Assembly (NCBI GenBank): GCA_014905635.1
Contig: JABVCE010000007.1
Coordinates: 744,001 to 808,000 of the forward strand
From: Scenedesmus sp. PABB004
Lineage: Eukaryota
Reading direction: 5' to 3'
Length of the DNA: 64,000 bases
The stretch's first letter is position 1, and the number at the start of each line of letters is the position of its first letter. Shown one piece after another: positions 9,707 to 22,500 of this stretch. Under the pieces are notes generated by a model that saw only the letters and a list, made by a program, of their open reading frames with translations, was not told the DNA's origin and did not search any database. The translations under genes and the position numbers were made by a program.

Positions 9707-10432
9707 CTGGGCCGCGCGCTGGCGCCGCGGGTGCGGCGCATGGCGCGGGGCGTCGTGTCATTCGTTGGGGAGCGGGTCCGGGCGCGCAGCTTTGTGGGCG
9801 TGCTGCGCACTGCGGTCGTTTGCAGCTTCGGGCGGGTTTGAGCATCGCCCTGCAACCCGGGAGTCTTGCTTGCTGCGGAGCGCTCCGCGCCGCGCCCAGC
9901 GCAGGGTCAGCTGCGCGGCTGCCGGCGCGGCTGCCGGCAGCCGAGCGCTGCGTCCGGCAGGCGCCGCGCACGCGCTGGCAGACCCCCTGCAGCAGTCCGG
10001 CCCGGCAGCACCAGAGCCCAGCGACAGCCGCCACTGCGCCCGCGGCTCGCCCGCCACTGCCAGGGTCGGCTCCGCTCGCCACTGAGTGGGCACCCAGGTG
10101 GCTGCCGGCCCGCGACCGCGAGTGGGGCGCGTGGCGGCTGGCCCCGCGCTGCACAGCACCACGCGCGTGCAGCTGCTGGCGGCCGGCGCCGGGCGGGCAG
10201 CTAAACGAGGCCCTTGCCAAACCCCGGTGACGCCTGCCAGGATCTTCTGCTCCAGGCCGCTCGGACGCTCTCTCACTGTGCACCGAGGCCCCACGCCCTG
10301 CGCGCTCGGGTGGTCTGCCGTGGGGCCACCTGCGCAGGGCCTGCGGCGCGAGCGCAGCGCCGAGTCGGTCGCGCGCGACCACTGCCCCGCGCGCGGCCCC
10401 GCGGCCAGTGTCGCGTGCTCGCGGAGGTGAGG

Positions 10433-12381
10433 ATGAGCGACGACCTGACCAACCGCGACGTCGTCGGCCTGGGGCGTGGGGTCACCTTCGATGAGCGGGC
10501 CAGCGGCAAGCACTACCGCGCGCGCTTCCACTTCGCGCGCCGCGTCCTGGACCTGGGTCGGTGAGCAGGCTGGCGCGCCCAGCGGCGCGCGCTCGATGGG
10601 GCAGGCCCTCGCACCGTGGGGGAGCCCCGGGGCGCGCCTGTGCAGCCCGCAGCGCAGCGATACGCGCATCCTGGCCGTGCCAGCAGATCCGACCGCTGCT
10701 GGCCGCGCCGCGGCGCGCGAGGAGCGGCGGCGGCCGCCCGAGTGACGCGCTGCGCGCGAACGCGGGCAACGAGCTCGTCGGCCGCCGTACGAGGGCAGTG
10801 CCCGAAGCGCTTTGGCACTGCTCACGCGCCGCCACCGCCGCGCCGCCAACGCCGCGCAGCTACTCGACGCAGCACGAGGCGCGCCTCGCGTACGACCAGG
10901 TCGCGACGGCCATGGCCACGTTCAAGCGCTGCAAGACCAACTACCCGCCGGGGTCTCACGCGCTCGACAACCCTGACGTGGACCAGCGCCTGCGCGCGTT
11001 CCTCGCCCAGCTCTCGGCCACGGCGCTGGTCCGGCCCGCGCCCGCGGGCGCGCCGCGAACGCGCGCGGCGGGGCAGGAGCCGGGGGCGCGGCGCGCCCAG
11101 TCGCCGCAGCCGGCCAGCCTGGCGCAGGGCGCGTGCGCTGCCGGCACCTGCCACAGCGGCACCAGCTCCGGCGACGACGCGGAGGTGGAGGAGGCAATGT
11201 TCCGCGAGCTGCTGGGCATGGTGCCGGCGCTGCTGGACAGCGGCGCTGCCCCGGCGAACCGGGCGCACCCCCTGCTCACAAGCGCCAGCAACGGCAGCAG
11301 CGACCTCCTGCAGCCAGTGCCGGGGCAGTGCGCGGCGGGCGAGTGCGCGCCGTGGGCGGCTGATGCCGCGGATGCCGGTCTGTGGCTGCTGCCGCCACCG
11401 GCGCCTGCAGGCGATGCGGCGCCAGCAGCAGGCGCGCTGGCGGCAGCAGGCAGCGGCGCCTGGCCGGAGGGGGGCCCGCTGTTCGTGGGCCTCACCGCGC
11501 AGGCGCCGCCAGACTGCCGGCCCGTGGACGCCGGGCTCATCGGCGTGGAGGCGAGCGCTCGGCCCCCTGCGTGCAGCCCAACCACCTCGGCAAGCAGCGC
11601 CGGCGCTGTGGACGGCAGCGCCATTGCTGGTGGCAGGGGGCTGGCGAGCGCAGACAAGCTGCCCAGCAACCTGAGCGGCGTCTGCTGGCCCCAGGAGCTG
11701 AGCGGCGGCAAGCGGCCTGCCGGTGCAGTCGAGACGCCCCAGCCTGGCAAGCGCCGCTTGCTGCAGGAGCCGGCAAGCCCGCAGGTGGCGGCAGGCAGCT
11801 CTGGAGAGCGCCGCTTGCCCTGCGGCACGGTCGGCGCCACTGGCGCTGTGCGCGGCGGCGCCGGCGCCTTCCTCGGCCCCGCCGCGCAGCGCGGCAGGGC
11901 GCTCGCGTTCCTGCAGCACTGCATCCAGTCTGCGCTCAGCCTGCACGTGGCGCTGCTGGCAGCAGGGCCGGCAGAGTCGTGCGCCGCGACCGACATGGTG
12001 CGCTGGCTGTCAGCGTTCCGGCAGGGCGGGCCGGCGCCCGCGTGCCTCGACGCACCCACGGCGCCCGCCGCGCACTGGTCGGCGGCGCGGCTGCTGGGCG
12101 AGCTGCTGGTGCTGTTGACGCGGCCGCAGGCCACTACGGCGCCCAGGGCGGGCAGCGGCGGGCCCGGCCGCTTTGCGTGCCGCACGGACGTGCTGCTGGT
12201 GCTGGAGGGCCTCACCTGCGCCCTGACGCAGCTGCACGACGAGCTGGGCCGCAGCGGCGAGCCCGCGCTCGCAGCCGGCGAGCTGGCGGCCTGGTCCGCT
12301 GGCCTGCGGGCGGGGGCCGAGGCAGGCGTGCCTGGGGGCGCGGCCGTGGCGCAGCTGGGCGCGCAGCTGCTGGCCTTGTAG
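10433..12381 (+). CDS. AP2/ERF-domain transcription factor-like protein, 2 exons
   Basis: Exon 1 10433-10560, intron 10561-10859 (GTGAGC..CGCAG). Spliced RGVTFDERASGKHYRARFHFARRVLDLGRYSTQHEARLAYDQVA..KTNY is an AP2 signature. Low-complexity tail; TAG 12379-12381. Confidence 0.8.
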
Positions 12382-12885
12382 CTGAGAAACCATGACGCCC
12401 ATGAATGAGGCGGCGCACACCAAAGATGGACTGCACTTCAGCGGTACAAACGCAACTGCCACGACCGTGCAATCACAACAACTGCACTGCACTGCACTGC
12501 ATCTCGCCGCTTCACCACGCCTCCTTTCGACCTTGCACATCATGACATCACCGCGCGGTCTTTGCCTGGTTGGTGAACGCTCAAGAGTGTGTCAGGACAC
12601 CGAACTGATCTGGGGAAGATGCAATGACGGCAGGCTTTCATTGTTCGAGCAGCAGGGTGCGCCGCACCCAACTCTACCCCCAGCTAGCTATATGGTTCAG
12701 CTGCGACTGCTGTCGGCTGCGTGCTCGTGGGTTCAGCCACAGTGTGCGTGCTGCACCCAACACTGCGCCGCTGCCGACAAAAAATGTGGGAGCGTGCCCC
12801 AAGACAGAGCTCACTCACCGGCCGACAAGCTGGCTGTGTGTTTTGCCTTGCGAACGTTGGCTCTGTGTTCTGCTTCGTGCATGCT

Positions 12886-14612
12886 GGCGCTGGATCGCTG
12901 CATCGGCGGGCCTTCCCTGCCCTGTGCGGTCCATTGCTGGTGGCTGCCTGCCAAAGACTGCTGCCGTGACTGCGGTCCTGACCGCGCGTTAGGTGAGGTG
13001 AGCTATCAAGAACTGCCCTTTCATGAGCTCGGCAAGACAACACGGTTACTCAGCAGCGGCCCCGCGCGCGCCGCAGGCTGGCGGCGGCGGCGGCGGCGAG
13101 TAAAGAAGGGGCTCGAGCAGGCCTGCGCGCCCAGCGTCCCGCCGCGCCAGCGACCGGCCAAACACGTCCCGGCCGCCGGCTGCCGCGGCTGCCGAGCACC
13201 GCAGCCGGCGCGCTGCCTCGGCCGTCAGTGGGCGCTTCAAGCACGTGACCGTCGCGTCGGCCACGGGCCCGCGCCGCACGAGCCGGCCGTGCTCACTCAC
13301 GCCACCCAGCTCCGCGGAACGGCCCCCGCCGCCGCTCCCGCCGCCCACGCCCGGAGCAGGCGGGCCTGGCGAGATGGAGCCAGCACGCTCGCACCGGGGT
13401 AGTTGGTGCGGCGCCTGCACCTCAAGCAGCCCAGGCGCGGGGCTTGGGCGGCGCGCGTGCGCGCCCACGTCCGCCCGCACGGCCTCGTACTGTGCGCGCT
13501 GCTCAGCGCTGGCGCGGAACACGCCCGCGCCCACGTGGTCAAGGTGCGTGCGCTCACGCAGTTCATGCTGCGGGCACCCGTGGCCGGCGCGTGCGCTGTG
13601 CGACGGCTGCCCAGCAGCCTGCTGCGCCCGCCTGGCGCGCACCGCGCCCTGCAGCCGCTCCACAGTGCCGCCGCCAGCTGCTGTGCCGCACCGCCGCCGG
13701 CGCCGCTGCTGGCTGCGCCGCGCTGCGCCAGACCGCCGGGGCTGCTCGCCCGCCGCCGGCCAGCGGGTGTGGCGGTCACCGTGCAGCAGGCTGCACTGGC
13801 GCTGGCGCTGGCGCTGGCGGCCTGCGTTGAGGCGGTGCTGCGCGCCAGCAGCGCGTGCGGGTCTGCCGGCAGCTTGATGGCCTTGTGCTTCACGTGCTGC
13901 GCGTTGTGTGCCGCCACCAGCGTGCGCGGGTGGCTGGCGCCCAGCGCAGCGCCCAGCGCCTGGCGCCGTCGCGGTGGTCGGTGCGGTGGTGGCGGCTGTG
14001 TGGCTCGCGCGGCCGCAGAGCGCGGCGCCCGCCCCCGCGCCAGGGCCTGCGGCGTTCAGGCGAAGCGCCCAGCCCGGCACATGCACCTGCTGCGCCTCCT
14101 CCACCAGCTGCAGGCCGCGGCTGCTCTTGCCAGGCAGTCCAGCACCAGCCGCCGCCGCGGTGTCGGGGTGGCGCCGCCCCAGCACGCCGCACTCGCTGCG
14201 AATCACGTACGCGCGCACGCAGTGCTCAAACGCTCCCTGGAAAGCGGGTGCGGCAGGTGCGCGGAAGTTGGATGCACGCTGCGCTTTGTGGCCTCCCGCG
14301 CCGCCCCTGCCCGGTGCGCGCAGCAGCGCGGGCGGCGGCTGCGGCGCGGGGCGCTGCGCGCCTGCAGGTCGTCGCAGTGGTAAAGGGCCACGCCCGCCGC
14401 CGCGTGCCACAGTGCAGCGTCCGCGCCCGCCTCGTGCAGGCAGCCGAGCACTTCGCGCTCCAGCACGCCCCACGCCTCGGCGTCGCGGCCGCCGGTGAGC
14501 ATGATGGAGCTGGCGGCGGCAGAGAGGTACAGCGCGGCCGCCGGCGGCAGCGCGCCTGCGGGCGAGTGACAGTGCAGCAGGCGTGGGCGGCGGTGCTGCG
14601 GCACGGCGGCGC
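12886..14612 (-). pseudogene. Block A1: 5'-truncated, frameshifted copy of the 3' end of the RCC1/TPR gene (source 19372-21137)
   Basis: Near-identical direct copy that keeps introns and downstream flank. It has a deletion in the HNLGLVLD codons (~14150) and a 1-nt deletion (~13685, gtgccgcacc vs gtgcccgcacc), both breaking the frame. It has no 5' exons. Confidence 0.85.
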
Positions 14613-14985
14613 TGCGCGAGCACGCGGGACCCAGGCGCGCACCCGCCATACTGCCGCCAGCATGCTGCCGCATCTCTGGTGGTGGTGGAGTGCGGTTGGC
14701 GGGCGCGCCGACCGCCCGCCGGCAGGCTGCCGGCGGCAGCGCGCAGCCGCTGACTGCGCGCGGCACCCCGCAAAGGCGCGCACGACACACCGCCAGCGCA
14801 GAGCGCTGCGCGCGGGCGGACGGCTGCTGCCCACGTGCGGGCGCCCTAAAGGTGCGAACCCGTTTGTGACAGCATGTTACGTGCGATGCTCGTCACCCCG
14901 CCGCCGCCGGCGCCCCGCGACGATCGAGCGTGAGCCCCGACGCAGCAGCGCCGCGCCACACGCCACACACTCACGCGGCGCTTGT

Positions 14986-16331
14986 TCAGAAGCCAAACTT
15001 GACCTTGGGCACGGCGAAGGTGATGGTGGTGTGGAGAGTCGGATCGCCAACGCCGTCCCAGATGACATCCGTGCGCTGGCCAAACGCGCCGACAAACTGG
15101 TTGGTGCCGCCTGCGGGCGCGCGTCGCCGGCGCGTTCCGCGCGCCGGGTGTTTGCGCGCTCTCGGCGGCGCGCCAGCCAGGGGCAGCCAGTCCCTTTGCC
15201 GGGGCGCCGCGTGCAGCTCACCAACGACCGCAATGTCCTGGTCCACCATCTTTTGGTCACTGGCCGAGTAGTCCACGCCCCCAACCAGCTGGAGCGAGTC
15301 GCTGAGAGCAGGGCCAAACTCGAGGCTGTACTGCGCGAGCCGCGCGCTCGGCGAACCGGGCAGGGCCTTGCTGGCAAAGGTCTGCACGCCGGACCACACG
15401 CCCACCTTGGCACTGCGCGGTCGACGGGGCGCGGTGCAGATGAGGGGGGGGGGGGGGCGCGGCGGCGAGGCCTTGCGCGCGGCAGCTGACGCCGCACAGC
15501 CCCTGCCTCGCACCCGGCGAGACCGTCGAGCAAGTCACCGTACAGCACGCGCCAGCCAATGATGCCGTTGCCGCTAACATTGGATGCCGAGATCTGGTCC
15601 CAGATGGTCTGTGCGGCCGAGCAGGGGCAACGGCAGGAGAAGGGGGGGGGGTGGCAGGGTTGCGTGCCGGCGAGGGCTGCGCTGTGGCGGCTGCGACAGC
15701 CCCGCCCGCCGCTTGCGCCCCTCTGCGCACCAGTTTGAAGGTGATGTTAAGACGGTAATAGGTATACAGCGAGTCGCTGCCGACCTGCACGAGCGACAGG
15801 GGGCGGCAGGGGTGCGCAGGCCGGCGGAGGTCAACTCTGGCCCGCGGCTGGCACGCCGGCGCGTGGTGGCTCGCCCGCCCGCCGCGGAGCCCTGACCGAC
15901 TGACTGACGCACCGCCGTGTAGTGGTCGCCCGTCCACTTGGAGGTGGCCACCCAGCCGTGGGATGGCGAGCCCTTGTGGTGCGCGGGCTCGGCGGTGGAG
16001 CCGGCGGGGCGCTTGGCGGCAGCGGTGCCGGAGCCTGCGGGGCGCAGCGCGCGCACGAGCCTGAGCCACCCGCGATCTGCACCGCTGCATCCCCACCAAT
16101 CGAGAGCCCGAGAGCCCGAGAGCCCGAGGCAGACGAGCGCACGCACTGCGCGAGCCACGCGGCGCGCGCCGGCCCCAACCGCCACCGCCGCCCGACCCCG
16201 CCGCCGCTCGCCCGCGCACCTTGCGCAGCCGCGGCCACGACCACCGTCGCAAGAGCCAGCAGCGCAAGCGCGACCTGCCGACGAACGGGCGCGCAGGCGC
16301 CGGGCGGCGGCGGTGCGCGTCGGTTGTGCAT
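14986..16331 (-). CDS. Secreted dirigent/allene-oxide-cyclase-barrel-like protein, paralog 1 (~233 aa, 6 exons)
   Basis: Exons 16331-16220, 16034-15913, 15784-15731, 15608-15514, 15412-15222 and 15110-14986 are all GT-AG and phase-consistent. Signal peptide VALALLALATVVVAAAA. Motif QDIAVVGGTNQFVGAFG resembles the dirigent hAVVGGTGxFxxAxG and AOC LAVTGGSGIFEGAYG motifs. Confidence 0.7.
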
Positions 16332-16615
16332 TCAAAGTTGGCTCGCCCTGTGCGAAGCGCACGGCTCGCGGACAGCGCTGTGCGCCCGCAGAGCGCTTCC
16401 CGACAATCATTTGCACTGCGAGCGCGGTCCATTTAGGCCGGCGGCCTCGCTGCACTCGCGCGCCGTCGCCCGCTGCCCCCCCGCCGCGCACCCGGGCCAT
16501 GGCGGAGCTCTTGTCGGAGGTTGTGCACAGCGCGGTACGGGGAGGTGGATCGGAGTGCGAAGAGGCTGGGGGCGCAAAGGGGACCTCTGCGCAGGACATT
16601 TTCGTGACGCTGTGA

Positions 16616-16644
16616 CGTTCCGTACCGCGTTGCGGTACGGAACG
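16616..16644. promoter_or_regulatory. Perfect 13-bp inverted repeat with GTAC cores upstream of paralog 1
   Basis: CGTTCCGTACCGC-GTT-GCGGTACGGAACG. A third GCGGTACGG lies at 16532-16540. The regulatory role is inferred. Confidence 0.5.
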
Positions 16645-17198
16645 GGCAGGGCTGCGGCGCTGCGGCGCCCCGCGACAAGCGCCTGGGACGCAACGCCGCA
16701 GCCCTGCAGCTGAGCAAGCACACCTCCTTGCAGGAGGCACTGCGGCGGCAAGCGTCGCCCAGCGCTGCGGGCGCGCGGCTGCTGCCAGGCTGCAAGCTCA
16801 CACCGCTCGCCCCTGCGCATGCCATGCGCCCCGGGACGGCGGCCGCGGTGCAGCGGCATCGCTGCAGCAGCAGTGCCGGCAACATCGGTGGTGCGCTCGC
16901 AGCTGTGCTCTTTCGTTACTTGCGAGCGCTGACCGCCCGCTAGCACGCTGCGCGCGCAGCCGCTGACTGCGCGCGGCACCCCGCAAAGGTGCGCACGACA
17001 CACCGCCAGCGCAGAGCGCTGCGCGCGGGCGGACGGCTGCTGCCCACGTGCGGGCGCCCTAAAGGTGCGAACCCGTTTGTGACAGCATGTTACGTGCGAT
17101 GCTCGTCACCCCGCCGCCGCCGGCGCCCCGCGGCGATCGAGCGTGAGCCCCGACGCAGCAGCGCCGCGCCACACGCCACACACTCACGCGGCGCTTGT

Positions 17199-17712
17199 TC
17201 AGAAGCCAAACTTGACCTTGGGGACGGCGAAGGCAAAAGTGGTGAGGCCCGTCGCGACGCCGATCCCCTCCCAGATGACATCCGTGCGCTGGCCAAACGC
17301 ACCGACAAACTGGTTGGTGCCGCCTGCGGGGGCGAATCGTGAGGGCGCCGTCTGCGCATGTGCCCGTGGCTTTTGCGCGCCCTTGCCCGCGCGCGCCCTT
17401 CAGGCGCAGCCAGCCCCCCTGGGCGCCGAGCAACTCACCGACAACCGCGACGTCAGAGTCCACCAACTTCTGCGTGGGGGGAGCGTCAAAGTCCACGCCC
17501 CCGACCAGCTGGAGCGAGTCCTTGAGAGCAGGGCCAAACTCAACAGAGTAATGCGCGAGCCGCGCGCTCGGCGAGCCGGGCATCGCCTTGGTGGTGAACG
17601 TCAGCGCGCCCGACCACACGCCCACCTTGGCACTGCGCGGTCGACGGGGCGCAGTGCAGACGAGTGGGGGGCGCGGCGGCGAGGCCTTGCGCGGCAGCTG
17701 AGACACACGCGC

Positions 17713-17798
<86 letters not shown>

Positions 17799-18625
17799 CA
17801 CGGCTGCGCACCCAGTGGCGGGGTCATACACGTCTCCGGCAAAACTGCGCCAGCCGATGATGCCGTTCACACTGGCGTTGGACGGTGAGATCTCGTCAAA
17901 GAAAGTCTGCGCGGCCGACGGGGGCGGGGCGGGGGATCGCGCGGCGCATAGCGCCGCGGCGGGCGCCGCCTTGCTCGCAGCGACAGCCCCGCCGGCCACA
18001 CACGCCCAGCGCCCCGCCGCGCACCAGAGTCAAATTGACCTTGATACGGTAATAGGTGTACAGCGAGTCGCTGCCGACCTGCACGAGCGACAGGGGGCGG
18101 CGGGGGGACGCGGGCCGGCGGAGGTCAACGCTGGCCCGCGGCTGGCACGCCGGCGCGTGGTGGCTCGCCCGCCCGCCGCGGAGCCCTGACCGACTGACTG
18201 ACGCACCGCCGTGTAGTGGTCGCCCGTCCACTTGGAGGTGGCCACCCAGCCGTGGGATGGCGAGCCCTTGTGGTGCGCGGGCTCGGCGGTGGAGCCGGCG
18301 GGGCGCTTGGCGGCAGCGGTGCCGGAGCCTGCGGGGCGCAGCGCGCGCACGAGCCTGAGCCACCCGCGATCTGCACCGCTGCATCCCCACCAATCGAGAG
18401 CCCGAGAGCCCGAGAGCCCGAGGCAGACGAGCGCACGCACTGCGCGAGCCACGCGGCGCGCGCCGGCCCCAACCGCCACCGCCGCCCGACCCCGCCGCCG
18501 CTCGCCCGCGCACCTTGCGCAGCCGCGGCCACGACCACCGTCGCAAGAGCCAGCAGCGCAAGCGCGACCTGCCGACGAACGGGCGCGCGGGCGCCGGGCG
18601 GCGGCGGTGCGCGTCGGTTGTGCAT
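17199..18625 (-). CDS. Secreted dirigent/AOC-barrel-like protein, paralog 2 (6 exons)
   Basis: Exons 18625-18514, 18328-18207, 18078-18025, 17906-17812, 17632-17439 and 17323-17199 have the same intron positions as paralog 1. Motif SDVAVVGGTNQFVGAFG; ends FAVPKVKFGF*. Confidence 0.7.
17726..17795. repeat. (CA)~35 microsatellite in intron 4 of paralog 2 only
   Basis: Read directly; absent from the matching paralog 1 intron. Confidence 0.95.
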
Positions 18626-18909
18626 TCAAAGTTGGCTCGCCCTGTGCGAAGCGCACGGCTCGCGGACAGCGCTGTGCGCCCACACAGCGCTTCCCGACGA
18701 TCATTCGCGCTGCGAGCGCGGTCCATTTAGGCCGGCGGCCTGGCAGCACTCGCGCGCCATCGCCTGCTGCCCCGCCGCCGCGCACCCGGGCCATGGCGGA
18801 GCTCTTGTCGGAGGTTGTGCACAGCGCGGTACGGGGAGGTGGATCGGAGTGCGAAGAGGCTGGGGGCGCAAAGGGGACCTCTGCGCAGGACATTTTCGTG
18901 ACGCTGTGA

Positions 18910-18938
18910 CGTTCCGTACCGCGTTGCGGTACGGAACG
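18910..18938. promoter_or_regulatory. Second copy of the 13-bp GTAC inverted repeat, upstream of paralog 2
   Basis: Identical to 16616-16644. Confidence 0.5.
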
Positions 18939-19531
18939 GGCAGGGCTGCGGCGCTGCGGCGCCCCGCGACAAGCGCCTGGGACGCAACGCCGCAGCCCTG
19001 CAGCTGAGCAAGCACACCTCCTTGCAGGAGGCACTGCGGCGGCAAGCGTCGCCCAGCGCTGCGGGCGCGCGGCTGCTGCCCGCCAGGCTGCAAGCTCACA
19101 CCGCTCGCCCCTGCGCACGCCATGCGCCCCGGGACGGCGGCCGCCGGTGCAGCGGCATGTTGATTGAACTAGACAAGATCGACTACGACTTTGCGGTGAG
19201 GCCGCCGCCACGGCAACTGCGGCCTTGGCCGGTGTGAGGCCAGTGTCAACCTCACACCGCGCGCGATGCCCCTGCCCCGCCTGCGCCGCACGCACCCAAA
19301 CTGACACGCAACAAAACAGCTTTAGCTCACTCAGAGGCCTCGCTGGCTGTGTGTTCCGCCTCAAGGGCGTGGGCGCTGGATCGCTGCATCGGCGGGCCTT
19401 CCCTGCCCTGTGCGGTCCATTGCTGGTGGCTGCCTGCCAAAGACTGCTGCCGTGACTGCGGTCCTGACCGCGCGTTAGGTGAGGTGAGCTATCAAGAACT
19501 GCCCTTTCATGAGCTCGGCAAGACAACACGG

Positions 19532-22500
19532 TTACTCAGCAGCGGCCCCGCGCGCGCCGCAGGCTGGCGGCGGCGGCGGCGGCGAGTAAAGAAGGGGCTC
19601 AAGCAGGCCCGCGCGCCCAGCGTCCCGCCGCGCCAGCGACCGGCCAAACACGTCCCGGCCGCCGGCTGCCGCGGCTGCCGAGCACCGCAGCCGGCGCGCT
19701 GCCTCGGCCGTCAGTGGGCGCTTCAAGCACGTGACCGTCGCGTCGGCCACGGGCCCGCGCCGCACGAGCCGGCCGGGCTCACTCGCGCCGGCCACATCCG
19801 CGGAACGGCCCGCGCCGCCGCTCCCGCCGCCCACGCCTGAAGCAGGCGGGCCTGGCGAGATGGAGCCAGCACGCTCGCACCGGGGTAGTTGGTGAGGCGC
19901 CTGCACCTCAAGCAGCCCAGGCGCGGGGCTTGGGCGGCGCGCGTGCGCGCCCACGTCTGCCCGCACGGCCTCGTACTGTGCGCGCTGCTCAGCGTTGGCC
20001 CGGAACACGCCCGCGCCCACGTGGTCAAGGTGCGTGCGCTCGCGCAGTTCGTGCTGTGGGCACCCGTGGCCCGCGCGCGCGCTGTGCGGCGGCTGCTCAG
20101 CAGCCTGCTGCGCCCGCCTGGCGCGCACCGTGCCCTGCAGCCGCTCCACGGTGCCGCCGCCAGCTGCTGTGCCCGCACCACCGCCGGCGTTGCCGCTGGC
20201 TGCGCCGCGCCGCGCCAGACCGCCGGAGCTGCTCGCCCGCCGCCGGCCAGCGGGTGCGGGAGGCACCGTGCAGCAGGCTGCGCCGGCGCTGGCGCTGGCG
20301 CTGGCGGCCTCCGTTGTGGCGGTGCTGCGCGCCAGCAGCGCGTGCGGGTCTGCCGGCAGCTTGATGGCCTTGTGCTTCACGTGCTGCGCGTTGCGTGCCG
20401 CCACCAGCGTGCGCGGGTGGCTGGCGCCCAGCGCAGCGCCCAGCGCCTAGCGCCGTCGCGGTGGTCGGTGCGGTGGTGGCGGCTGTGTGGCTCGCGCGCC
20501 TCCGGCTCGGCGCCCCCCCCCCCCCCCCCCCCGCCAGGGCCGGCTGCGTTCAGACGCAGCGCTCAACCCGGCACACGCACCTGCTGCGCCTCCTCCACCA
20601 GCTGCAGGCCACGGCTGCTCTTGCCCAGGCAGTCCAGCACCAGCCCCAGGTTGTGTGCCGCAGCCGCGGTGTCGGGGTGGCGCCGCCCCAGCACGCCGCA
20701 CTCGCATCGAATCACGTACGCGCGCACGCAGTGCTCAAACGCATCCTGGCGTGCGGCAGCAGCGCGGCAGGTGCGCGGAAGTGGGATGCACGCTGCGCTT
20801 TGTGGCCTCCCGCGCCGCCCCTGCCCGGTGCGCGCAGCAGCGGGGGGGGGGCGGCGGCTGCGGCGCGGGGCGCTGCGCGCCTGCAGGTCGTCGCAGTGGT
20901 AAAGGGCCACGCCCGCCGCCGCGTGCCACAGTGCAGCGTCCGCGCCCGCCTCGTGCAGGCAGCCGAGCACGTCGCGGCAGCCCTCCAGCACGCCCCACGC
21001 CTCGGCGTCGCGGCCGCCGGTGAGCAGGATGGAGCTGGCGGCAGCAGAGAGGTACAGCGCGGCCGCCGGCGGCAGCGCGCCTGCGGGCGAGTGACAGTGC
21101 AGCAGGCGTGGGCGGCGGTGCTGCGGCACGGCGGCGCAGCGCGCAGATGGGCCCAGGCGACGCACCCGCAGACCCCTCAGCCTCGGCCTCCGGCTGCTGC
21201 GCGTCCAGCCAGTCCCGCCAGGCCTCCTCCGCCAGCGCCAGAAGGTGCAGCGCGCTGTCCACCTGGCGCGCCTGGTGCGCTGCCTGCGCCGCGGCCAGCA
21301 GCGGCGCGACAGACGCCGGGCAGGCCGCGGGCGGCTGCACCGCCTCCTGCGGGCGCAGCCGCGGCGGGCGGCGGCCGGTCAGCGCAGCGCCGGCCCGCCC
21401 AGGACGGCCTGCGCCAGGGGCGCGAGCGGCAGCGTTCAGCTCGCGTGCCCCGCGCACGTGCAGCAGCACCGGCATGTAGCGCAGCGTGGACAGGTGGTCG
21501 TGCGCGCGGCTCTCTTCGGGGGGGTCAAAGCGCAGCGCCCACCACTCGGCGTACGGGTCGCTCCGCAGCCCTGCCGCGGCGGCAGCGCAGAGTCGGGCGG
21601 GCGGCCTGGGGCACCCGGCAGGCGAGGTGGCGCAAAGTCAACAGGGCCCGCCACGCGCGCGCACCCGCTGAGGCCGCCGCGGGCGCGCCAGCCAGCAGCT
21701 GCCCCTGGCCAAGCAGTGGCGGCACGCCCAGGTGGGCCAGGAACGCGGCGACCTGCTGCTCGGGCTGGCGCAGCGGGCTGGCCGCGAGGCGGCGCGCCCC
21801 AAATGCCGCCAGGCCGCACATTGCGAGCGCGCGCGAAAACTCGGCAGCGCTGAGGCCGTCAAAGGCAAGACCCTGCGCAGCGGCGGCGCGGCGCGGCACC
21901 GGTGCGGCGCGCGGGGAAAAGGGCCTGCCCAGCACACGGCGCGGCACCGCGAGCGCCCCCGCCGGCCGCCCCGGGCCACCGTGCGGCGGCTGCCGCACCG
22001 GCTCCGCCCGCTCCGGCAGCAGCTGCCGCAGCACCGCCTCCACGTCGCCTGGCTCCAGCAGCTGCGGGAGGGCGCCGCGGTCCTGCAGCAGCTCCAGGAA
22101 GGCCGGCAGCGCGAGGCCGCCGCCGTCCGGCAGCCGCACGGCGTGCCGCTCGCGCTGGGCGGCAAGCGCGCCGGCGTACATCTGCTCCAGCTGCGGGCGC
22201 CACGCGGCCAGCAGCGCGCCCGCGGCGGGCGTGGCGAGGCTGCTGGCACAGAGGTCAAACCTGGGGGCGCGCGGCGCGCACGCGGCGCACGAGTACGCCA
22301 GCGGGGAGACACGGGCGCCGGGCCCCATGCTGCCGCCCGCACCGCGCACACGCACCTGGTGCGGCTGCGGTCCGCGAGCAGCTGCACGTGCCGCTCGACC
22401 ATGAGCGCCCAGGCCCGCGCGCCGTTGGTGATGCCGGGAAAGCACCGCCGGCTGAGCGCCGCCAGCGCCGCGGCAAAGCGCGGCAGCGTGAGCACGGCGT

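Follow-up and report, generated by a model that had tools for sequence, protein, structure and literature searches.

How can two neighbouring gene copies be nearly identical at both ends and differ strongly in between? This question is raised by a gene pair of the green alga Scenedesmus sp. PABB004 (assembly GCA_014905635.1, contig JABVCE010000007.1, positions 744,001 to 808,000). The window analysed here is this whole stretch of 64,000 nucleotides, and all coordinates are counted from its first letter. Two duplicated units, A and B, lie head to tail in it and each holds one six-exon gene on the minus strand, encoding 232 and 233 amino acids, respectively. All introns of both genes are GT-AG and the frames are open, which bears out the two six-exon paralogs proposed in a preliminary description made from the letters alone. 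The duplicated units reach further than that description had placed them, from about 14636 to 19158.

The explanation that we favour, with a probability of about 0.62, is that gene conversion homogenises the pair and that selection rejects conversion tracts entering the part that codes for a barrel. In this history, a gene for a secreted, N-glycosylated, eight-stranded barrel resembling allene oxide cyclase (AOC) and dirigent proteins would have been duplicated head to tail long ago. Interlocus gene conversion or unequal exchange would then have repeatedly overwritten one copy with the other. Tracts over the promoter, the signal peptide, the linker and the 3′ end would have been harmless and spread, and tracts moving part of one barrel into the other would have been purged by selection. 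In the barrel the old divergence would thus persist, at silent sites too, interrupted by small homogenised islands wherever the residues agree.

Divergence along the two copies

A homogenised 5′ block (coordinates of the named segments are given in Table 1) differs at 1 of 551 bases between A and B and includes an identical run of 458 bases. In the divergent tract 138 of 701 aligned columns differ, and at the 3′ end, last codons included, the count falls to 3 of 278 bases. Counted by parts, A and B differ in 1 of the 78 codons of exons 1-2, at none of the 185 bases of intron 1 and at 5 of the 128 of intron 2, in agreement with the near-identity described before for these parts and the 3′ flank. 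The same had been said of the promoter, which is correct for the far 5′ flank (1 of 379 columns) and not for a previously unreported promoter-proximal patch, where 10 of 93 bases differ between near-identical blocks (0 of 5000 shuffles equal this) and which is a possible regulatory difference between A and B. Introns 3 and 5, which had been called unalignable, do align: 81 of 107 (76%) and 83 of 103 (81%) ungapped columns match, far above 300 shuffles (z 5.6 and 7.0).

Residues are changed in 44 of the 134 codons of the tract, an indel counted, and the changes are clustered (runs p 0.026); the longest stretch without a change is 21 codons (p 0.005). In exon 4 the residue is changed in 14 of 32 codons; this count and the five peptide contrasts quoted earlier were all found. 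Sixteen of the 44 substitutions score negative in BLOSUM62. The codons between the changed ones, described as largely conserved, are so only in part, as 21 of the 87 same-residue codons of the tract differ silently.

Nei-Gojobori counts over the 154 codons of exons 3-6 gave 0.19 non-synonymous (dN) and 0.50 synonymous (dS) differences per site, a ratio of 0.39 (0.39-0.41 across six gap placements; bootstrap over the 137-codon tract 0.25-0.60). Also within each of exons 3, 4, 5 and 6 taken singly, dS was higher than dN. There is no excess of amino-acid change in exons 3-6, and diversifying selection in the sense of dN > dS, as previously suggested, is contradicted by the per-exon counts, an outcome that the preliminary description itself had named as speaking against it. 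The silent sites themselves follow the profile, with differences at 6 of 398 before the tract vs 76 of 390 inside it (p 1e-18). Silent changes were found at 17 of 50 codons within two codons of a residue change vs 4 of 37 farther away (p 0.011; permutation p 0.03), and the tract contains silent-identical islands, with a run of 45 among 390 silent sites (p 0.002). Both would be expected if short conversion tracts succeed only where the residues already agree.

A dN/dS below 1 is compatible with selection keeping two copies different. In the peak-of-divergence model of Teshima and Innan (PMC3924837; PMC2588116), silent differences accumulate next to protected sites, and dS > dN thus leaves room for selection. 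The same sources describe the signature under gene conversion in primate red/green opsins and in the Drosophila transporters CG18281-CG17637, which resemble A and B in being neighbouring duplicates with near-identical flanks and introns and a high local coding divergence. In the algal pair high local divergence likewise stands between flanks of low divergence, and the duplication is older than the identity of the flanks implies. The pair differs from these cases in that its peak spans a whole domain and three introns (about 740 bases, 20%) and not a few sites; it differs also in being known from the sequence of one species alone. The evolutionary pattern is thus already published and would not surprise a specialist. 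Its value here is that of a neat natural example whose control lies next to it, and the fact that A and B differ only in the barrel makes them suited to domain-swap and ligand tests.

Age of the pair and independent DNA

That the duplication is old is seen at its outer 3′ edge, where A and B show 62 matches and 27 mismatches (30% diverged; 1 of 500 shuffles reaches the score), an age resting on this single edge of about 90 columns. The divergence resembles that of intron 3 (24%). The pair is enclosed by a second duplication, S and S′, the latter being the 3′ end of a neighbouring TPR-like gene. At its outer edge 98 columns match and 40 of 138 (29%) do not, with 0 of 500 shuffles reaching the score. 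Among the remaining four of six edge comparisons three were negative and one was marginal, and homology was found neither at the 5′ outer edge nor between the spacers. Since both outer edges are diverged, both duplications appear to be old and their interiors to have been homogenised later. In the interior of S/S′ 68 of 1726 columns differ, and the maximum per 700 columns is 47 in S/S′ vs 138 in A/B. S/S′ is equally old at the edge and yet without a comparable peak, and so serves as an in-locus control for A/B. That gene conversion homogenised the two ends of a pair of older origin, one of the possibilities offered in the preliminary description, is supported by the diverged edge, the block profile, the islands and the wild contigs described below.

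A toy two-copy simulation with guessed parameters was scored for 700 bases at ≥17% divergence between 300-base flanks at ≤2%. Under neutrality this pattern appeared in 6 of 16,443 correlated snapshots (84 settings, homology-dependent conversion included), and with protected sites in 0 of 405 (3 sites), 13 of 405 (8 sites) and 39 of 405 (15 sites). All that the model teaches is that, in it, resistance to conversion is needed at many sites spread over the domain.

Three freshwater metagenome runs from two studies, available as contigs of low depth, were compared with positions 11500-22500, and the best matches were listed. Among the data sets listed as containing this DNA none was of RNA, a result that does not bear on expression. 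One B-type contig, at 17003-17556, joins the B centre to the shared 3′ flank; against 79 columns that tell A from B there, it shows 10 other letters and 4 gap letters. Its 9 listed differences are 2 synonymous and 7 non-coding, and none changes a residue. Four of these 9 show the base of A; a reading of these as conversion was rejected, as private mutations in the B of the window would give the same. A-type contigs cover 15088-15405 (15 other letters) and, in the exon 3 region, 15663-15817 (0 differences). The shared 5′ flank is carried into the A-specific junction with the spacer by the contig 16507-16918, and into the B-specific junction toward S′ by the contig 18605-19417, with 5 other letters each. 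Each version of the promoter-proximal patch is also covered. Both barrel types are hence kept in wild contigs and exist outside this assembly. Because both types and both junctions lie in separate wild contigs, an assembly collapse, raised earlier as a possible cause of the identical flanks, is unlikely. Among the matches listed no contig spans the whole pair, 16918-16976 is unbridged and the link of A to its 3′ flank is absent. At 17059-17060 A and B of the window agree and both differ from wild B, wild A not being among the matches listed there. At 16867 the junction has a second version in two runs, and wild contigs have other sequence between 12383 and 12918, both pointing to natural structural variation.

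The encoded protein, a predicted barrel

Exons 5-6 of A read through the in-frame intron 5 (P0001) found one relative (P0002, E 1e-3) in a search of 1.84 billion representatives, and this was AOC_like by its Atlas features and structure. A profile search added four relatives. These intermediates match PF03018/PF18678 with E values from 3e-4 to 4e-5, which do not reach the cut-offs, and the profile route led from them to secreted-type actinobacterial AOC_like proteins. A 58-row profile (A6) matches PodA (PDB 5k21) at E 3.7e-20, AOC at about 2e-9 and DRR206 at 8.5e-8. With a profile of 55 homologues from which the rows of the window were left out, spliced A scored 18.9 and B 21.3 bits, the best of 1000 shuffles reaching 6.1. 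With a bacteria-only profile the scores of A (7.1 bits) and B (8.0 bits) did not stand out from those of 1000 shuffles, the highest of which was 7.1. The name barrel used earlier thus holds by way of the intermediate profiles, and the protein is probably a distant, secreted AOC/dirigent-like barrel. Aligned to the homologues, intron 5 of A is a clean insertion of 37 residues before a glycine turn, which supports the gene model.

Direct searches gave less. Six exon-level pieces contained no relevant Pfam family, a PDB sequence search with P0001 had no match, and word-indexed homologue searches with it confirmed 0 of 136 (near) and 0 of 1551 (longer length) candidates. In the metagenome scan with P0001 0 of 197 stretches were confirmed; with the profile A4 3 of 223 were, all of one bacterial-type uninterrupted gene. 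A scan of viral contigs confirmed 0 of 102. Searches of the alga's own genome for PF18678 and PF03018 had no match, and neither had the controls. The first matches of an Atlas search with P0001 were below 0.9 and LptD-like and were taken as noise. A single-sequence fold had a mean predicted local distance difference test score (pLDDT) of 36 and was not used. An alignment-based model of exons 5-6 with intron 5 read through, which leaned on the alignment of family members, had a pLDDT of 62 and six strands. With this partial model Foldseek found no match at E 0.001, and VIA-align gave Z 5.2-6.2 to 2q03, 8of7, 2ooj, 5k21, 1z8k and 8th2, mixed with unrelated barrels.

The closest relatives found are metagenome fragments (P0002-P0015) of 25-38% identity, which look like fragments of exons. 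They group with A and B and differ by long branches. In a tree of every second bacterial row and no plant rows, A, B and these fragments were separated from 24 actinobacterial rows in 98 of 100 replicates, with long-branch warnings. The locus suggests that a green alga has a secreted AOC/dirigent-like protein, from a group of proteins about which little is known; the literature, which was partially covered, gave no account of one in chlorophytes.

A strand map was predicted from the profile alignments, registers included. The ends of the divergent tract (codons 90 and 223) coincide with the predicted first and last strands. The changes are most frequent in strands 1, 2 and 8 and in two mouth loops, and are absent from strand 7 and from the turn between strands 6 and 7. 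The most conserved segment of the family, around strands 6-7, is identical in A and B. At predicted inward positions B has Phe at 98, 118, 176 and 222 vs Ile, Leu, Tyr and Ile in A, and A has Phe vs Leu in B at 94, so that the inward face of B appears more aromatic than that of A. By sequence, residues 20-34 form a signal-like hydrophobic stretch (mean hydropathy 2.8), and each copy has two N-glycosylation sequons, one of which has moved by two residues (91 vs 93).

Actinobacterial secreted AOC_like proteins (PF18678) and PodA share with A and B a signal-like N-terminus, one barrel after it (predicted in A and B) and a conserved glycine-rich turn before strand 7, and differ from them at about 15-28% identity. 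What we take to be the catalytic set of PodA (D68, D72, H121, E154, Y156) is not kept; these positions map to Arg116, Gly120, Tyr/Phe176, Leu/Gly218 and Thr220. Allene oxide cyclase (PF06351; 2brj, 4h69) has, besides the profile match, a similar turn between strands 4 and 5. It is targeted to the plastid by a transit peptide and carries a catalytic Glu in strand 1, whereas A and B have the signal-like stretch and no evident equivalent of that Glu. As the set of PodA is not kept, nor evidently that of AOC in the variable register of strand 1, A and B would be pocket-protein-like at best and not members of these named enzyme families.

Plant dirigent proteins (PF03018; PsDRR206, PDB 4rev) are secreted barrels with sequons and a hydrophobic pocket, as A and B would be, and the pocket of the pinoresinol-forming ones has the conserved residues Asp40, at the end of strand 1, and Arg141 (PMC4340379). 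An Asp at the end of strand 1 common to both copies, Asp100, may match Asp40, the register of this strand differing between two alignment modes. The equivalent of Arg141, placed by its distance to the glycine turn, would be position 187, with Gln in A and Ser in B, and the host differs in not being a land plant.

In Streptomyces, a secreted-type AOC_like gene (L019:4733-5233, L021:5755-6255) sits upstream of another frame, which is presumably acyl-CoA-dehydrogenase-like. An IPT/TIG-like repeat region lies upstream of the AOC_like gene in L019 and L020 and not in L021.

Alternative explanations and the surrounding locus

By analogy with the related barrels, the most likely function of the two proteins is extracellular: they would bind hydrophobic small molecules, not quite the same ones in A and B, and steer or transform them. 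The rejection of tracts may protect two specificities, or it may only avoid misfolding chimeras. Several observations weigh against selection as the barrier. The simulation needs many protected sites, with three giving nothing and eight only a few snapshots, which moreover are not independent. The promoter-proximal patch is a peak of 11% outside the coding sequence. The pocket is not enriched for changes, with 14 of 36 inward vs 14 of 38 outward positions changed (p 1.0, in the predicted registers), and mouth loops (12 of 33) vs base loops (4 of 24) show a trend only (p 0.14). The proximity of silent to residue changes is weaker at three codons (18 of 61 vs 3 of 26, p 0.06), and multi-base mutations can also put silent changes beside residue changes. 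Plain purifying selection gives a dN/dS such as the observed 0.39. No sister species was found, and hence no count of paralog-shared vs ortholog-shared sites could be made. Of the earlier suggestion of conversion and/or selection on ligand specificity, conversion of the ends has stood and dN > dS has not; a change in specificity as such may or may not have accompanied the divergence.

A somewhat unlikely alternative keeps the same conversion without a functional difference. The barrels would have drifted under purifying selection, and tracts would fail because chimeras misfold or because recombination is stopped, in the latter variant by the 20% divergence and the microsatellite in intron 4 of B. 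The dN/dS, the equal change of inward and outward positions, the unchanged family segment around strands 6-7 and the occasional pattern under neutral homology-dependent settings (up to 2 of 225) are all in line with this, whereas the interior of S/S′ did not escape homogenisation, the islands imply that conversion still reaches the tract, and more than a third of the substitutions are radical by their BLOSUM62 score. In its misfolding version this alternative leaves the same signature as conversion bounded by selection for two specificities, and the two are indistinguishable on these data.

A one-off capture is improbable. The duplication would here be recent and the centre of one copy derived from a diverged allele, a lost paralog or an introgressed haplotype, or balanced alleles would have been placed in tandem by unequal crossing-over. 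The flank divergence of 0.2-1% lies within strain differences (0-5%), the wild contigs with the second junction and other sequence would fit, and the S-A-B-S′ layout takes several rearrangements. However, the centre is no more diverged than the outer edge, wild DNA has both the A-to-spacer and the B-to-S′ junction, and no donor was seen in the genome: a DNA search and three protein queries, which would miss distant paralogs split by introns, returned only A and B besides short low-complexity matches. An ancient capture may still be compatible.

Doubtful to a similar degree is the idea that a eukaryotic, probably algal and so far undescribed branch of secreted AOC/dirigent-like barrels forms a small-molecule defence repertoire, varying its pocket by strand-sized block swaps between tandem copies; it would neutralise or re-route bacterial redox toxins or phenolics. 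Among the distant relatives P0006-P0015 two variant blocks occur in all four combinations, with 39 four-gamete site pairs among 6 sequences, which could reflect recombination or assembly chimeras.

Classical diversifying selection, with barrel residues changing faster than neutral as in immune or recognition proteins, is very unlikely. The changes are clustered and partly radical and the relatives P0006-P0015 vary block-wise, but dN is below dS in each of exons 3-6, with a bootstrap upper bound of 0.60, and the listed differences of wild B are all silent or non-coding; a few selected sites could not be revealed by two sequences. An artefact, by flanks collapsed or polished to one version or by two haplotypes joined in tandem, is hardly credible, as the long identical run and the unbridged segment are met by separate wild contigs into each junction, by the B centre joined to the shared 3′ flank and by the exact match in exon 3 of A.

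The G+C content of the window is 72-83%, and the introns are short. A self-comparison returned four direct blocks in the order S, A, B and S′ (Table 1).

Table 1. Coordinates of the tandem pair, its segments and the flanking duplication
Feature	Position	Strand	Remarks
Unit A	14705-16859		direct block of the self-comparison
Unit B	16926-19158		direct block of the self-comparison
Gene A, 232 aa	14986-16331	-	exons 16331-16220, 16034-15913, 15784-15731, 15608-15514, 15412-15222, 15110-14986
Gene B, 233 aa	17199-18625	-	exons 18625-18514, 18328-18207, 18078-18025, 17906-17812, 17632-17439, 17323-17199
Divergent tract of A, codons 90-223	15017-15754	-	counterpart in B about 17230-18048; matches predicted barrel strands 1-8
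Homogenised 5′ block (part of intron 2, exon 2, intron 1, exon 1)	15837-16387	-	counterpart 18131-18681
Promoter-proximal patch, small second divergence peak	16388-16480	-	57-149 bases upstream of the start codon; counterpart 18682-18774
Homogenised far 5′ flank	16481-16859	-	counterpart 18775-19158; 1 mismatch in 379 columns, 5 gap columns
Homogenised last codons and 3′ flank	14739-15016	-	counterpart about 16952-17229
Old outer 3′ edge of unit A	14636-14737	-	homologous to the A-B spacer 16860-16951, about 70%
A-B spacer, outer 3′ edge of unit B	16860-16951	-	edge alignment
(TG)n/(CA)n microsatellite expansion, intron 4 of B only	17698-17804		intron 4 of 179 (B) vs 101 (A) bases
S, truncated and frameshifted duplicate of the 3′ end of the TPR-like gene	12855-14646	-	in-locus homogenisation control
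S′, 3′ end of the TPR-like gene itself	19341-21169	-	TPR_12 at E 9e-4, below the curated cut-off

To arrive at the order S-A-B-S′, at least two duplications and one loss are needed, or else an insertion that duplicated 1.8 kb of flanking sequence. Conversion tracts could be obstructed by the long (CA)n repeat that only B has in its fourth intron. A perfect 13-bp inverted repeat with a 3-base loop lies in the shared 5′ flank of both units (16617-16645 and 18911-18939), and a DNA search found no other copy of it in the genome. Neither the 5′ flank nor the region left of S is a multicopy element by the same kind of search (3 and 4 matches, the extra ones short or weak). A gene on the plus strand converges on S (10432-12382); two pieces of it had no Pfam match, and it carries what we take to be an AP2/ERF-like motif split by an intron.

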